From a virus, in UHGV virus genome UHGV-0254580: a stretch of DNA of 13,064 nt; one strand, 5' to 3'. The position numbers and the translations under genes were made by a program. This document shows, piece by piece, positions 2,995-10,805 of the stretch. The number at the start of each line of letters is the position of its first letter. Within the stretch, counting starts at the first letter, position 1. Below the pieces are notes generated by a model. That model made no database searches and had not been told where the DNA came from. It saw nothing but the letters and a program-made list of their open reading frames with translations.

Positions 2995-3070
2995 TGGTGC
3001 TGGTTAACGGACTTGAACCGCTACCCATTCGCTTACAAGGCGACTGCTCTACCATTGGAGCTAAACCAGC
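2995..3070 (-). tRNA. tRNA-Thr (anticodon UGU), phage-encoded, with encoded CCA
   Basis: Manual cloverleaf on the minus strand: acceptor GCTGGTT/AACCAGC (7 bp), D-arm GCTC-CAATGGTA-GAGC, anticodon stem GTCGC/GCGAA with loop CTTGTAA (U33, anticodon TGT, A37), T-arm AGCGG-TTCAAGT-CCGTT, discriminator A, CCA. 76 nt. Confidence 0.6.
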
Positions 3071-3075
3071 ATGTT

Positions 3076-3150
3076 TGGCGGGACAGCGTGGACTCGAACC
3101 ACGATAAGAAGGTTAACAGCCTTCCGTAATGACCTTTATACGACTGACCC
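3076..3150 (-). tRNA. tRNA-Asn (anticodon GUU), phage-encoded, with encoded CCA
   Basis: Manual cloverleaf on the minus strand: acceptor GGGTCAG/CTGTCCC (one U-U mismatch), anticodon stem GAAGG/CCTTC (perfect) with loop CTGTTAA (anticodon GTT), T-arm CGTGG-TTCGAGT-CCACG (perfect), discriminator G, CCA. D-stem is only 3 bp. 75 nt. Confidence 0.5.
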
Positions 3151-3213
3151 AAATAAAAAAAGCCACCGTTGCAACTTAAGAGTCACTAACGGCAGCTTAC
3201 CTTCTAATTATGG

Positions 3214-3732
3214 CTAAATGGCTAATTGCATGTCAAGGCTTTTAACAGCAACATGCTTAACTTTCTCAACACGTTTACGCATTTTGAAAGCATTTTGCAT
3301 TGGTTGGTACAAAACAAATAACGACGCTTTCAGGATGTCGTCAATTTCGTTTCTACAGGTTGCCAGTGAAGGTTTTCTCCATCCCTCGCCACCACGTCCA
3401 CACATCTTGCGTGGCTTTGCAGTCGCGTGATAGTAGGATGCAATTGCTCGCTTAGATGAACCATGAGCGTAGTAGCTGAGGAGGATGCCAAAGGCTTTTT
3501 TGTCAATGCACATGACGGAATCGACGACCTGAGAAATCAACATTCCATCATCATCATTACACATTGGCCTTGTCATAATTCTTCCCGGCTCTACGCTCTC
3601 CATGAACTTAGCTATTACGCTGCTCATGCGCTTTTCCAGACGACCTGAATAAACCCATGCACCCCACAGTTCAAGCCAGCCATTCAGCCACTCGTGCTGT
3701 TCTTTGGTGAGGTTTAGTTCTCTTATGCTCAT
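3214..3732 (-). CDS. Putative late-gene antiterminator (Q-position protein; not lambda Q)
   Basis: 172-aa ORF directly after ninH (start overlaps the ninH stop) and upstream of the late leader, tRNAs and S, i.e. the Q position. Sequence does not resemble recalled lambda Q; the assignment is positional. Confidence 0.45.
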   Translation of the reverse strand: MSIRELNLTKEQHEWLNGWLELWGAWVYSGRLEKRMSSVIAKFMESVEPGRIMTRPMCNDDDGMLISQVVDSVMCIDKKAFGILLSYYAHGSSKRAIASYYHATAKPRKMCGRGGEGWRKPSLATCRNEIDDILKASLFVLYQPMQNAFKMRKRVEKVKHVAVKSLDMQLAI

Positions 3733-6031: not shown

Positions 6032-6064
6032 CAAATAAAAAGGCCTGCGATTACCAGCAGGCCT
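6032..6064 (-). terminator. Intrinsic terminator, lambda tR2-like
   Basis: Minus strand reads AGGCCTGCTGGTAATCGCAGGCCT followed by TTTTTATTTGGGGG: 8-bp GC-rich stem, 8-nt loop, U-tract. Same sequence type as the terminator preceding ninB in lambda (recalled). Confidence 0.65.
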
Positions 6065-6089: not shown

Positions 6090-6359
6090 TCATTGCTTCA
6101 TCTCCCTTTCCATTTCATCAATGTCAACGTCATCAGGAAGATGGGAGCAATACGCCGCTATACCATGATGATTTATCTCATACCCTTTGAACGTTACCAT
6201 CTGGCGCGTAATCTCAACTTCGTTCAGGAATCCGTCATCGCATAACTGCCTGGCTATTTTCGATTTGGTCTGGATTATTGGTAGTGCCTGTTCTTTCAAA
6301 GCGTATGATATTTGTGCATCCCATGCTTTTTCGAGAATGGCTAATTGTTTTTTATTCAT
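6090..6359 (-). CDS. Hypothetical protein (89 aa) in the ren-equivalent position
   Basis: ORF immediately downstream of the primase-helicase and upstream of the tR2-like terminator; acidic C-terminus; no motif I can assign. Confidence 0.5.
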   Translation of the reverse strand: MNKKQLAILEKAWDAQISYALKEQALPIIQTKSKIARQLCDDGFLNEVEITRQMVTFKGYEINHHGIAAYCSHLPDDVDIDEMEREMKQ

Positions 6360-8240
6360 TTAATACTCCGTCACGTTTTCCTGTCGCCACGCCTCGTCAT
6401 ATTCCGATTTCGGCATATTGGCGATGTAGCTATATGGCGATCCTGATTCAAGTTGCAGGAACTGGTGCGATTGCTCGTCAAGGAACAACGGGACACCACC
6501 TTCCCAACCTTCGCCGTTACGTTGTTTTTCAAGCATCAAAACAGATGCCGGAGATGCCAGTAGCTGTTCGTCCTTCTCTGACATCTTTTCACCACTCTGA
6601 ACTCTCTGTAACGCTCTCTCGCGAGCCTTGTTACGCCAGATGATGAAAAGGTTGTCTGTCAGGTCTGTTATCGCTCCAGAGCCTTTTACGTCCATTTTCC
6701 CGGTTGGTTTTTCTTCGCTGTCACCTTTTCGCGAGTGAGTAACGAGAATGACGTGGGAGTTTGTTTTGTTTTTGAAATCGCAAATCGAGTCAACAAACGC
6801 CTTCTGCCCGTTATAGTCATCGTCGCCTATGCCACATTTCATCAGGCTGTCGATGATGAATAACTGGATGCCGTATCGGCGGCGAGCGTAGTCGAATATT
6901 TCGATCAGCCTGTCGGCTTTCGCCGTTCCGGTCAGGCCAAACACCCAAAGTCTTTCGTCATAAAATTTAAATGCAGAGTCAATTTCCAGCACTGGCGGCA
7001 TCTTGCAGCACGTCGCCTGACGGGTAAGTCGCTTAAGGAGAATGCCTGGCTTCAGCTCAAGTGACGCGATGCACGTCTTCACACCCTGACGCATTGCCTC
7101 AAGTGCCATATGCCCGACAACCTCCGTTTTTCCGTGACCGTTCACACCATTGACCAGCGTCAACTCTGCCTCACGAAACTGGAATTTATCTGCCAGAGAT
7201 TCCCACGGTGGATTAAACAGATACTGCTGCTTGCCGTAGAAAGCGTTGATAGTGTCCTGGTAAAACTCTCGCGCGCTGTAGAGTTCTTCAGGATCGAAGT
7301 AGGATGCCGTGCCAATGTACTGCCAGATTTCATCCTCGGTAACACCGTTCATCAGGCATTCGTTGATGTCTTTGTACGGCAGAGTAACAAGACGGCAACG
7401 ATGTTCACCGAGTCGACTTGCGATTTCCCTTGCGGCTTCACGACCAACATCATCAACGTCCATCGAGATGAATATTTCCTCAAACCTGTCGAGGTTGTGA
7501 TACTCAAACTCAATCCACTGCTGCTTAGCGCCTTTCCCGCCACCAAACGGCACGGATAACGCCGAGATGCCGTATTGCGCATAGCTCATACAATCAATTT
7601 CGCCTTCGCAAAGTACAACCGCCCTCACGCCAGCGTCCAGAGCCTGCCATCCGAACAGACAAGGTTCGCAATCACCTTCTGCCATAATGACTTTCTTCCC
7701 GTCCGGGCGCTCAGTGCTGATTCGCTTGACCTGCAACAACTCACCATCGCGTTTGTACGGAATCACCAGAGCATCCAGTTCCCGCTCTCCATTCCACACC
7801 TTGCCGCTGACAACCTCGTAGCGCTTTACGATTTCTGGCGATATGCCACGCGATTGCAGGTACTCAAGATGGGATTCTGTTCTGGTAACGTAGCGGGCGA
7901 TTTTCTTGCGATCAGGTCTGGAGAATTTCTTCTCACGTTTGGCATCGAAATGGTGATCGTCATCCTTGATACCGAGAAATGCTTTCGCTTCCTGCATAGC
8001 CTGATGCAGATTAATTCCACGACATGACATCCACAAATCAAGCATGTCACCGCCGTCTCCCTCAGCGAAATCAGCCCATTTTTTCTTGCCGCTAAGGTTG
8101 ACCTTAAGGCTGTTTCCCTTGTCACCGTTGACGTTACCGGCAACCCACTCATGCCCCTCTTTCTTGCCGTTTGGCAACAGGTGCGGAGCCACCCTGTCAA
8201 CCTGCGCCCAAAGCAGGTCGCTAAGTTCACTTGGTGTCAT
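6360..8240 (-). CDS. Bifunctional replicative DNA primase/helicase (Toprim primase domain + RecA-fold SF4-like helicase)
   Basis: 626 aa. Toprim-like acidic motifs (VVLCEGEIDCMSY; ISMDVDDVGREAA) in the middle; C-terminal Walker A GVNGHGKTEV and Walker B-like LFIIDSLMKC. Occupies the position of lambda P, downstream of the O-like gene. Confidence 0.8.
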   Translation of the reverse strand: MTPSELSDLLWAQVDRVAPHLLPNGKKEGHEWVAGNVNGDKGNSLKVNLSGKKKWADFAEGDGGDMLDLWMSCRGINLHQAMQEAKAFLGIKDDDHHFDAKREKKFSRPDRKKIARYVTRTESHLEYLQSRGISPEIVKRYEVVSGKVWNGERELDALVIPYKRDGELLQVKRISTERPDGKKVIMAEGDCEPCLFGWQALDAGVRAVVLCEGEIDCMSYAQYGISALSVPFGGGKGAKQQWIEFEYHNLDRFEEIFISMDVDDVGREAAREIASRLGEHRCRLVTLPYKDINECLMNGVTEDEIWQYIGTASYFDPEELYSAREFYQDTINAFYGKQQYLFNPPWESLADKFQFREAELTLVNGVNGHGKTEVVGHMALEAMRQGVKTCIASLELKPGILLKRLTRQATCCKMPPVLEIDSAFKFYDERLWVFGLTGTAKADRLIEIFDYARRRYGIQLFIIDSLMKCGIGDDDYNGQKAFVDSICDFKNKTNSHVILVTHSRKGDSEEKPTGKMDVKGSGAITDLTDNLFIIWRNKARERALQRVQSGEKMSEKDEQLLASPASVLMLEKQRNGEGWEGGVPLFLDEQSHQFLQLESGSPYSYIANMPKSEYDEAWRQENVTEY

Positions 8241-8344
8241 GATTCCCTCAGATTGAGATTTTTAAACCAGAAATCGACAAACGAAATACTTAACCAGCCG
8301 TGGTTATAACCAGCGACCAGTAGCGATTTGATTTTTGATTTCAT
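8237..8344 (-). CDS. Possible 35-aa coupled ORF filling the O / primase-helicase intergenic gap
   Basis: ATG 3 nt after the O stop, preceded by AGGTGA; translation MKSKIKSLLVAGYNHGWLSISFVDFWFKNLNLRES; its TGA overlaps the primase-helicase ATG (ATGA). Short SD spacing; unverified. Confidence 0.3.
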   Translation of the reverse strand: MKSKIKSLLVAGYNHGWLSISFVDFWFKNLNLRES

Positions 8345-8347
8345 GGT

Positions 8348-9208
8348 TCACCTGTCGAAAAACACGTAGCCAGTTTTCGATACGGTGATTGCGGATGATG
8401 GTTTGGATTGTGGTTGAATGGTTTCTGGCTTTTCGTCGTTCCAGCGCTGACCGTTCAGGTAGCTCGATGGTAACAACCTGTCGAATCCGAACTGCTTACC
8501 ATTCCTGCATGCGATGTCTTCTGCCAGCATCGTGGCAAACTCGCTTGCTGTACCCCTTGTAGTTTTACGCCATTCCCTGAACTGTGTTCTGAATGCCGAA
8601 GCCGCGTTTTTCTTCCCGGCTTTCCGCATGCCTGCACACCAGAATATTTCCTCGAATGCCTTGTCGGTTTCTTCGTGACGGTCAGATGATTTTTCACACT
8701 CCGTCCGAACACTTTCGGACATAGTGTTTTTATTATTTCTTTTTTCTTTTGTAATAGTTTCTTTTGTGTGTCCCTGTTTTGGTGACAGCGCTGTCACCGT
8801 TTTGGTGACACTTTTTGTCACCAATGCAGTGACATTATCACCAGAGTAGTGACACCCTTCGATTTGCCATTCTTCGATGTTCTTGTTAGGCCCAATTTGC
8901 TGGCCTTCGCGAAGGATAACCTTCATCGCGATAAGCTCATTCTTGGCCTTGTTTACCTTCTGTCTTGGCAGCCTGGTAATTTGAGCTAACTGACTATCAG
9001 AGATGCGATCCATCTTTTTACCGTAGCCGTATGTTTTACGGCATATGGCGTGGGCAACCTTGCTCTGATTTTTCGTTAAATCTGCGCCGATAAGCTCTTC
9101 ATACAGGGCATTTGCAAGACGGGTATAACCATCTTCAACTTCTGCCACACGACGCTCCACAGGCCGTTGTGAAGGCCTTAAATGTGTTACGGTTGCAAGA
9201 TTACTCAT
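8348..9208 (-). CDS. O: Replication initiator, lambda O-like N-terminal origin-binding domain with divergent C-terminal domain
   Basis: N-terminal region [56 protein letters not shown]...GPNKNIEEW parallels recalled lambda O (DGYARLSNMLLEAYSGADLTKRQFKVLLAILRKTYGWNKPMDRITDSQLSEITKLP...GPNKNISEW). Iterons lie inside the gene, as for lambda ori. Confidence 0.85.
8720..8856. repeat. Putative origin of replication: iteron array (GTGACA/TGTCAC-based, about 23-bp period) plus adjacent AT-rich tract inside the O-like gene
   Basis: 18-bp perfect palindrome GGTGACAGCGCTGTCACC (8781-8798), GGTGACACTTTTTGTCACC (8804-8822), then GTGACATTATCACC and AGTGACAC; immediately adjacent AT-rich tract 8720-8765. 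Confidence 0.6.
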
Positions 9209-9347
9209 GACCTTTCTCCTTCTGCATCAGCTTCACTTTTTCCAACTCAGCCCGGAATCGACCAGGCTGCTTGAAGCTGGACAGGAAGCGATCACGTAGT
9301 ATGTGTTTGTGAATTTTGTCCTGGTAAGGACTGAGTTGTTTTGTCAT
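9201..9347 (-). CDS. Possible 48-aa basic protein between cII and O (translationally coupled to O)
   Basis: Not in the ORF track. AGGAG 7 nt upstream of the ATG; translation [48 protein letters not shown]; its TAA lies within the first codons of O (ATGAGTAA). Confidence 0.4.
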
Positions 9348-9356
9348 AATGACTCC

Positions 9357-9425
9357 TGTGGATTGATCCAGTCTTTCTACATCAGGCCTCGAAGAATTCG
9401 CCGTTCTTCGGGGCTTTTTCTTTTG
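9357..9425 (+). ncRNA. Candidate oop-like antisense RNA with intrinsic terminator overlapping the cII 3' end
   Basis: Plus-strand hairpin CGAAGAA-TTCGCCG-TTCTTCG followed by GGGCTTTTTCTTTT at about 9399-9432, antisense to the cII C-terminus; a CATAAT -10-like hexamer at 9345-9350. Positional analogue of lambda oop; extent approximate. Confidence 0.35.
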
Positions 9426-9663
9426 TCAGGTAATTGGCAAGCCGCTTAGTCAGCTCAGCCATTTCATCGTCTTCGATTCCGTATTCCAGAACAGCCAGCA
9501 TCATGCTTACCTGCGAGAAGAAACCATTCTTCCATCGGCTTACCTGATATTCAGGAACCCCCATTGCTCGAGCGAATGTCTTCTGCCCCATCAGTGCCAG
9601 TTTGTTCAGCAAGGCTGACTCGATGCGAGCCGCTTTCTTGCTTTTAGTTGCAATAGTACTCAT
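9382..9663 (-). CDS. cII: cII-like transcriptional activator
   Basis: 93-aa protein ...[64 protein letters not shown]... parallels recalled lambda cII (...[60 protein letters not shown]...). Confidence 0.85.
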
Positions 9664-9779: not shown

Positions 9780-10010
9780 TTAAGCGGCCATTAATTCAGG
9801 CCAGATGCTTTCCCAATCAACCGGATGAAGGTCTTTGCGAGTCACTTCACCATTGCTGAACTTCTCAATCAGAACACAAAGTGCTGCGCCCAATTCATGA
9901 TTACGGCTAAGTGCTTTCCTCAAATAGCCGATAGAAGTTCCGCACTTGGTGGCAAATTCTCTCTGCTCTTCCAGTGAAAGGGAGTTCAGATACAAGCGGA
10001 GTTCTTCCAT
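9780..10010 (-). CDS. cro: Cro-like HTH repressor (76 aa), first gene of the rightward early operon
   Basis: Divergent from cI across the operator region; RBS GGAAGGAG upstream of the ATG; HTH-like segment QREFATKCGTSIGYLRKAL. Assignment is positional plus HTH. Confidence 0.65.
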   Translation of the reverse strand: MEELRLYLNSLSLEEQREFATKCGTSIGYLRKALSRNHELGAALCVLIEKFSNGEVTRKDLHPVDWESIWPELMAA

Positions 10011-10118: not shown

Positions 10119-10805
10119 ATGGATAAATACGAACAAAGACGACTAAGGCTGATAGAGATAAGAGACCGATTCTGTAATGGAAAGGCCTCAGAGTTGGCTC
10201 GTCGAATAGAAAGGGAACCATCATACGTTTCCAGAATGCTGTATCCGGAAGGAAAAAGCGGAAAAAAACGCATTGCTGACGATATGATGGAACTAATTGA
10301 AAAATCTTTTAATCTCCCACGCGGATGGATGGACATGCTTGCAGATGGTAAAGCTGGAGCTACAGACCATCTTGAGTTTGCGGGTAACGTTCGTGCGGGT
10401 TTTGTTCCGGTAATTGGTGAAGCCGTTTTGGGAGTTGATGGCTCAGTGGATATGATTGAATTCAGATCCGGTTGGTTAAGCATCTACAGCGGCGATAACG
10501 ATGCTTACGGTCTGAAGGTTAAGGGTGACAGCATGTGGCCAAGGATTCAGTCAGGAGAATATGTTGTTATTGAACCAAATACGCCAGTACATCCAGGTGA
10601 TGAAGTCTTTGTAAGGACCAAAGACGGTCACAACATGATAAAGATCATGAACAAAACAAGAGACGGTGATTATCAGTTTAGTAGCATAAACAGTGATCAC
10701 CGCCCAATCACTCTTCCTGTTGAAGAAGTTGATAAAATGCATTTTGTTTCAGCTATTGTGAAACACACCAGGTACGTAGACCAGGACGATCTGCCAAAAG
10801 TTTGA
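10119..10805 (+). CDS. cI: cI repressor (N-terminal HTH, C-terminal LexA/S24-peptidase autocleavage domain)
   Basis: 228-aa protein with HTH-like ELARRIEREPSYVSRML and C-terminal S24 features (GDSMWP Ser motif, downstream Lys); divergent from cro across palindromic operators. Not lambda cI by sequence. Confidence 0.9.
   Translation: MDKYEQRRLRLIEIRDRFCNGKASELARRIEREPSYVSRMLYPEGKSGKKRIADDMMELIEKSFNLPRGWMDMLADGKAGATDHLEFAGNVRAGFVPVIGEAVLGVDGSVDMIEFRSGWLSIYSGDNDAYGLKVKGDSMWPRIQSGEYVVIEPNTPVHPGDEVFVRTKDGHNMIKIMNKTRDGDYQFSSINSDHRPITLPVEEVDKMHFVSAIVKHTRYVDQDDLPKV

Follow-up and report, generated by a model that had tools for sequence, protein, structure and literature searches.

The pairing of an O-like origin binder with a primase-helicase or a putative helicase has been described for phages (PMC10307801). 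In the epsilon34/ES18 region, gp50 was reported as the origin binder, accompanied by a putative helicase (PMC2629481), and the version found in a Stx phage (Stx2a_F403) was classed as replication type 'Eru5' by authors who stated that nothing was known about the replication proteins or the replication mode of the Eru phages (PMC8951638). Fusions of DnaG with an SF4 helicase represent a recurrent form of phage helicase (PMC4889955). The literature was searched for the dependence of ES18-, mEp043- and Eru5-type phages on DnaB, DnaC and DnaG, and no biochemical or genetic test was found.

Here, a stretch of 13,064 nucleotides of the virus genome UHGV-0254580 was analyzed, which is called the window throughout. 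It comes from the middle of a mosaic lambdoid (pro)phage whose early-right operon lies on the minus strand. The combination of O and a primase-helicase observed in the window is real, but it is common and already described, and we do not present it as new. The likely best explanation of the locus is an ES18-type lambdoid replication module, consisting of an origin within the initiator gene, the O protein, a micro-protein and a primase-helicase resembling T7 gp4. The following features were assigned.

Right of the replication genes (window coordinates): ral-like ORF, sieB and N-like gene
10119-10805, plus strand: S24 repressor
9780-10010, minus strand: cro-like gene
9382-9663, minus strand: cII
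8348..9208, minus strand: O-like replication initiator, 286 aa (Phage_rep_O, TIGR01610, identity to lambda O)
8237..8344, minus strand: 35-aa micro-ORF, MKSKIKSLLVAGYNHGWLSISFVDFWFKNLNLRES (phrog_21848, E 4e-26)
6360..8240, minus strand: bifunctional primase-helicase, 626 aa (Pfam, PHROG, sequence and fold matches, T7 gp4 alignment)
6090..6359, minus strand: 89-aa ORF, translationally abutting the helicase stop codon (phrog_2239, function unknown)
6041..6064, minus strand: strong predicted terminator-like hairpin with T-run (pattern match only)

In the direction of minus-strand transcription the cro-like gene is followed by cII, O, the 35-aa ORF, the 626-aa ORF and the 89-aa ORF, and then by ninB, other nin genes, rusA, Q, two tRNAs, holin, endolysin, Rz and an HNH endonuclease. 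An Rfam scan of the window returned the two tRNAs and nothing more, and the window shows no phage DNA polymerase. Using tblastn with lambda P, a P-like loader, two DnaC-like loaders and two DnaB-like helicases as queries, no P-like, DnaC-like or DnaB-like gene was detected in the window, in agreement with the original prediction, which had placed the 626-aa protein in the position of a P-type helicase loader. The 89-aa ORF was considered as a further part of the module and rejected, as only ~10 of the 80 loci whose helicase shows at least 99% identity contain it, which marks it as a variable accessory rather than a fixed component. The hairpin at 6041..6064 is placed like lambda tR2 and putatively closes the replication gene block.

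The O-like initiator is built from an N-terminal winged-helix domain, an origin-encoded linker and a C-terminal domain of non-lambda type (aa ~157-286). The winged-helix domain Phage_rep_O (PF04492) was found at aa 20-114 with an E-value of 1e-37, TIGR01610 matched with 2e-30, and the protein is 49% identical to lambda O over about aa 1-157. Beyond aa 157 no BLASTP similarity to lambda O was detected. Both the O-like N-terminal domain with its iterons and the divergent C-terminal domain, which had been proposed from the DNA letters, were thus recovered. The origin and the core of the C-terminal domain were located as follows.

8769..8854: four 19-bp dyad iterons, consensus TGTCACCnnnnnGGTGACA, spacing 20-24 bp, within the O gene at codons ~119-147
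8735..8768: A/T-rich stretch directly downstream of the iterons, with the direct repeat TTTCTTTTGT present twice
8423..8680, minus strand: core of the O C-terminal domain, aa 177-262, a four-helix bundle in the AF2 model

For the iterons, 4 matches with 0-2 mismatches were found versus 0.41 expected by chance in the whole window. Iterons and A/T-rich stretch lie at those codons of the O gene where they are also found in lambda O (ori-lambda). The A/T-rich stretch, which encodes the Lys-rich linker of O, is by analogy a putative DNA-unwinding element.

The core of the O C-terminal domain was modelled confidently as a four-helix bundle (AF2 pLDDT >90) and carries the motif F..FW.AGMRK..KK.A..AF ... 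GFD.L.P.SYLNG.RWNDE. The domain has no sequence match in Pfam, NCBIfam or PDB. Compared with a profile of the domain, lambda O gave no match (E 0.24) and P22 gp18 was found to be without the domain. All loci which were fetched by the helicase and for which upstream sequence was retained possess the O C-terminal domain (at least 94% identity) and the micro-ORF directly upstream, combined with an N-terminal domain that is either the same as that of the window or unrelated. Among the loci fetched by alignment of the C-terminal domain (57-100% identity to the window), the primase-helicase was located directly downstream in 80 of 80. The identities of C-terminal domain and helicase roughly track each other, with values of 99/99, 77/78 and ~61/60. 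At least five N-terminal domains are fused to the O C-terminal domain (Phage_rep_O, the Fraca type, HTH_36 of the Eru5 type and two others), and BLAST found no mutual relation between them. With 91% identity to lambda O over aa 19-157 and 98% identity to the window protein in the C-terminal domain, epsilon34 gp50 reads as a natural chimera with the junction right after the origin-encoded linker. In ~160 loci, recombination junctions were found between the N- and C-terminal domains and not between the C-terminal domain and the helicase. This pattern of swaps resembles the classical specificity of the lambda O C-terminus for P and fits a contact of the O C-terminal domain with the helicase. Nevertheless, co-inheritance of the C-terminal domain, the micro-ORF and the helicase can also arise from simple physical linkage.

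The micro-ORF is the third part of the module, which had been overlooked in the original prediction. Starting 3 nt past the O stop codon, it ends in a stop codon that shares the letters ATGA with the helicase start. Its counterparts are ES18 gp60 and epsilon34 gp51, and it is annotated in these phages. A length of 35 codons was observed in every fetched locus, among 38 nucleotide and 26 amino-acid versions, with eight positions invariant and the other two frames closed. The micro-ORF also accompanies helicases of only ~60% identity in modules of the Escherichia phage Fraca type, and in the enterobacterial clade its linkage to the helicase is strict. The Vibrio and Pseudomonas versions of the module lack it.

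The wider family of the O C-terminal domain is very large. Its profile matched 58,444 representatives of 50%-identity clusters at E <=0.001 and 28,426 at 1e-10. Most of these matches occupy the C-terminal end of 200-340 aa proteins or form stand-alone proteins of 100-170 aa. Relatives sharing 42-49% identity with the window domain are followed by DnaC-like loaders (L175, L187; phrog_50), by a lambda-P-like loader (L182; phrog_109, E 1e-21) or by a DnaB+DnaB_C helicase (L180). A relative of 59% identity (L256) has no recognisable partner, and neither have L170-L174. For the small stand-alone homologs no helicase was found nearby. In a Vibrio phage the initiator is 25% identical in the C-terminal domain, yet its helicase is 60% identical, and in Pseudomonas phage P7869 a helicase homolog occurs with an initiator lacking the C-terminal domain. 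An exclusive pairing of the O C-terminal domain with the primase-helicase was therefore rejected, since relatives adjoin DnaC-like, P-like or DnaB-like partners or no partner at all, and with such varied neighbors the domain is not a signature of the primase-helicase. Of the contact between O C-terminal domain and helicase that had been presumed initially, the part that stands is the consistent linkage in the ~160 loci, while the specificity of the domain for this helicase was lost with the relatives of 42-49% identity found elsewhere. The role of the domain may be a general docking of DnaB-family helicases or one that does not depend on the partner.

The second of these options corresponds to an alternative explanation. 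Here, the O C-terminal domain would perform a job common to many initiators, acting on melted or single-stranded origin DNA, in oligomerisation or on a host factor, and the helicase would be recruited by the 35-aa protein or by single-stranded DNA. The size of the domain family, the members preceding loaders of both kinds, a DnaB-type helicase or no recognisable partner, the low identity of the Vibrio domain in spite of the well conserved helicase, and the strict linkage of the micro-ORF to the helicase in the enterobacterial clade are all in favor of this explanation. The distribution of the junctions, which split the N- from the C-terminal domain and leave the C-terminal domain with the helicase as in lambda O/P, speaks against it, as do the Vibrio and Pseudomonas modules, which keep initiator and helicase adjacent without any micro-ORF. 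Overall, we regard an O C-terminal domain without docking function as a real possibility, although on balance a somewhat improbable one. The more general version of the docking idea was also weighed. In this version the ~85-aa helical domain of this very large family would be a general docking module of phage initiators for a DnaB-family hexameric helicase, and in the enterobacterial clade the 35-aa micro-protein would serve as a dedicated loading cofactor of the primase-helicase. If this were true, the helicase addressed could be phage-encoded (gp4-like or DnaB-like) or could be host DnaB, reached via a P-like or DnaC-like loader. This proposal is offered tentatively, and we consider it unlikely.

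The 626-aa ORF at 6360-8240 was predicted to encode a protein with Toprim and Walker A/B motifs, and the coordinates proved to be exact. The protein is divided into three domains.

7956-8240, minus strand: aa 1-95, zinc-less CHC2-like N-terminal domain
7311-7928, minus strand: aa ~105-310, DnaG-type RNA-polymerase/Toprim domain
6441-7208, minus strand: aa ~345-600, SF4 RecA-type helicase domain

In the Pfam annotation of both proteins, which had been suggested as a check, primase and helicase domains were found next to the Phage_rep_O domain of the initiator. Toprim_2 was located at aa 209-296 (E 3e-12) and AAA_25/DnaB_C at aa 355-594 of the 626-aa protein. PHROG 239 'DNA primase/helicase' covers the protein from end to end with an E-value of 4e-171, and among proteins of solved structure T7 gp4 (E ~1e-23) and Twinkle (E 6e-14) come nearest in sequence. 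The AF2 model (mean pLDDT 70) yielded Twinkle, T7 gp4 and a ZBD+RPD fragment of Aquifex DnaG as top Foldseek matches. Walker A reads GVNGHGKT (K371) and Walker B LFIIDS (D464). To assess the catalytic residues, an alignment was made of the protein, T7 gp4 and four homologs from temperate phages (39-61% identical). The primase residues K172, K182, E212, D261, D263 and D291 correspond to T7 K122, K128, E157, D207, D209 and D237, and the helicase residues K371, E395, D464, H502, R536 and R574 to T7 K318, E343, D424, H465, R504 and R522. Every catalytic residue checked in both halves was found conserved in the alignment, including the arginine finger. By its sequence, the product of the 626-aa ORF is a primase-helicase of the T7 gp4/Twinkle type. 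The helicase family comprises 2352 clusters at 90% identity (E <=1e-10).

The Cys4 zinc site of the primase is absent from the window protein, where residues aligning with T7 C17, C20, C36 and C39 are A, V, C and I. The first 95 aa contain only 1-2 Cys in the window protein and in all 20 aligned close homologs, and no zf-CHC2 domain was found in the precomputed Pfam lists of 120 homologs. These N-terminal 95 aa are well conserved within the helicase family and were modelled as beta strands followed by two helices, in a CHC2-like arrangement (pLDDT ~67-84). T7 gp4 requires the Cys4 zinc site for template-directed priming. Metazoan Twinkle, which is also without the Cys4 site, retains the fold but is not a primase.

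These observations bear on a second alternative, in which the 626-aa protein would replace DnaB in the manner of P22 gp12, while the zinc-less half would not prime, host DnaG would be recruited and the Toprim half would have a structural or regulatory role. The lack of the Cys4 site in every family member and the loss of priming activity in metazoan Twinkle are in line with such a helicase without primase function. P22 gp12, which works with DnaG, provides a precedent (Wickner 1984, cited in PMC8022706). Nevertheless, all six primase residues are invariant in homologs down to 39% identity and in T7, and the strong conservation of the N-terminal 95 aa argues for a working zinc-free template-binding domain. 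We hold a purely helicase function to be rather unlikely.

The module is widespread. The 3.3-kb block is ~98% identical to mEp043, Sf101 and vB_EcoP-720R6 and 88-91% identical to SEN22, epsilon34 and g341c, and these viable phages as well as ES18 possess the same module. Of 5426 complete E. coli genomes, 2026 match part of the block, and 247 contain a single place that covers at least 80% of it. The window is only a fragment of a mosaic prophage, and at most 67% of the window was covered at a single place in any E. coli genome, which might point to a non-working remnant in a cryptic prophage. This is highly improbable, since none of the module ORFs is disrupted, their identity to the ORFs of the plaque-forming mEp043 and Sf101 is 98-99.5%, and the surrounding regulatory, nin, Q and lysis genes are intact too.

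Returning to the ES18-type module as the preferred explanation, its genes would follow cro and cII in the rightward transcript from pR. The iterons would be bound by the N-terminal domain of O, which would also melt the A/T-rich stretch. The phage hexameric helicase would then be brought to the melted DNA, probably via the O C-terminal domain and/or the 35-aa protein, and would, like T7 gp4, need no dedicated loader but load itself. It would unwind the DNA and lay RNA primers for the host Pol III holoenzyme, with host polymerase, SSB, gyrase and ligase still being required. The original prediction had claimed initiation independent of both host DnaB and host DnaG. We would treat these factors separately. 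The module would probably bypass DnaB and DnaC, because the SF4 motor is intact, a loader gene is missing and P22 gp12 provides the precedent. For DnaG a bypass is only slightly favored; here we are less sure because of the absent Cys4 zinc site, even though the catalytic center is intact and the N-terminal domain is conserved.

The main value of these results is a correction of annotation, as the gene is still named 'P', 'hypothetical protein' or 'toprim domain-containing protein' in several deposited genomes. The module is very common and is also present in the Stx2a phages of outbreak strains ('Eru5'), and for this reason its replication mode could affect prophage induction and toxin gene dosage. 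The C-terminal domain family, for which neither a Pfam nor an NCBIfam model exists, the 35-aa ORF and the zinc-less primase N-terminal domain are side results of possible interest to specialists.

Compared with the known systems, the window is closest to the ES18-type modules (ES18 gp59-gp60-gp61; epsilon34 gp50-51-52; mEp043, Sf101, SEN22, g341c), whose gene order it shares, located between cII and the nin region. The helicases of these modules are 94-99.5% identical to that of the window (93.8% for ES18 gp61), the O C-terminal domains 98-100% and the micro-ORFs 71-100%. The downstream 89-aa ORF is variable relative to the ES18-type modules. The O N-terminal domain of epsilon34/ES18, which is itself nearly that of lambda O, is only 55% identical to the domain of the window. 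The window carries a different allele of this domain, and the iteron specificity should accordingly differ from that of epsilon34/ES18. Eru5 (Stx2a_F403, phi24B, Min27) shares the micro-ORF, an O C-terminal domain of 95% identity and a helicase of 97.7% identity outside an insertion, a 342-aa Hint+LAGLIDADG intein located after the P-loop; its initiator possesses an HTH_36 N-terminal domain where the window has Phage_rep_O.

The similarity to lambda O/P comprises the O N-terminal domain, the anatomy of the origin and the location between cro-cII and the nin region. The window differs by the lack of a P homolog and by the unrelated O C-terminal domain. Lambda P is a loader which captures host DnaB, whereas the module in the window carries its own helicase and primase. 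In P22 gene 18/gene 12 an O-like initiator is likewise followed by a phage SF4 helicase replacing DnaB (PMC8022706). However, P22 gp12 is of the DnaB type, lacks a primase domain and works with host DnaG, and P22 gp18 is without the C-terminal domain found in the window. T7 gp4 and mitochondrial Twinkle share the three-part architecture and the catalytic residues with the window protein, which is ~25% identical to T7 gp4 and, like metazoan Twinkle, is without the Cys4 zinc site. Unlike T7 gp4, the window protein belongs to a temperate phage with an origin-binding initiator.

The helicase gene of the window (6360-8240, minus strand; 626 aa) was found in an enlarged form in related phages. In the Stx phages Stx2a_F403 (homologous locus L003, 2861-5767), phi24B and Min27, and in phiKp_30, the encoded helicase comprises 968 aa and carries a 342-aa Hint+LAGLIDADG intein directly after the P-loop (about aa 372). 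Apart from the intein, the intein-bearing and the window helicase are 97.7% identical. The intein-bearing gene is named 'P' in the annotation of phi24B, and that of Min27 splits it into two ORFs, 'P' and 'ORF31'. Some further loci (L046, L071, L159 and L163; about 3011-3500) showed ~490 bp of extra sequence at the junction between the conserved 35-aa ORF and the helicase start, while the modules of O initiator, 35-aa ORF and helicase were otherwise identical. This insert contains a small ORF which ends at the helicase start, its final 29 aa being MKLSELSTKYGVSEMQISTIRRGNAWRHL. Within the 5' end of the window helicase gene a fifth iteron-like match was observed (8120-8138); it is weak, with 3 mismatches, and probably arose by chance.

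For the C-terminal domain of the lambda-O-type initiator (aa 177-262; window 8423-8680) a family of 58,444 cluster representatives was obtained at E-values up to 0.001. None of the 39 family members compared with the Pfam and NCBIfam models was matched. A tandem duplication of this domain was seen in some proteins (P0251-P0253).

Outside the replication module the following features were observed:

501-1500: low-GC island, about 36% GC versus about 48% elsewhere
634-1080: 148-aa ORF, phrog_6169, inside the island
2995-3070 and 3076-3150, minus strand: a pair of tRNA genes, Thr(TGT) and Asn(GTT), flanked by the genes for the Q antiterminator and the holin

The island is flanked by an Rz-like gene and an HNH endonuclease gene (156-506) and looks like a moron. 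The interval between Q and holin is the site of tRNAs in many lambdoid and Stx phages.

Finally, several elements were compared with known phages. The helicase C-terminus (6360-6404) forms an acidic tail with an aromatic last residue (...EYDEAWRQENVTEY), which is not kept in the Vibrio and Pseudomonas homologs. It recalls the tail of T7 gp4, which is also acidic and ends in Phe. Between cII and O lies a short ORF (about 9205-9347, minus strand); its stop codon and the start codon of O share the sequence ATGA. Its counterparts are orf48 of P22 and, in the annotation of the homologous locus L001, the 'DUF2740 family protein' at this position. On the plus strand, antisense to the cII 3' end, a strong terminator-like hairpin (9384-9416) is located where the oop RNA terminator of lambda and P22 is found.
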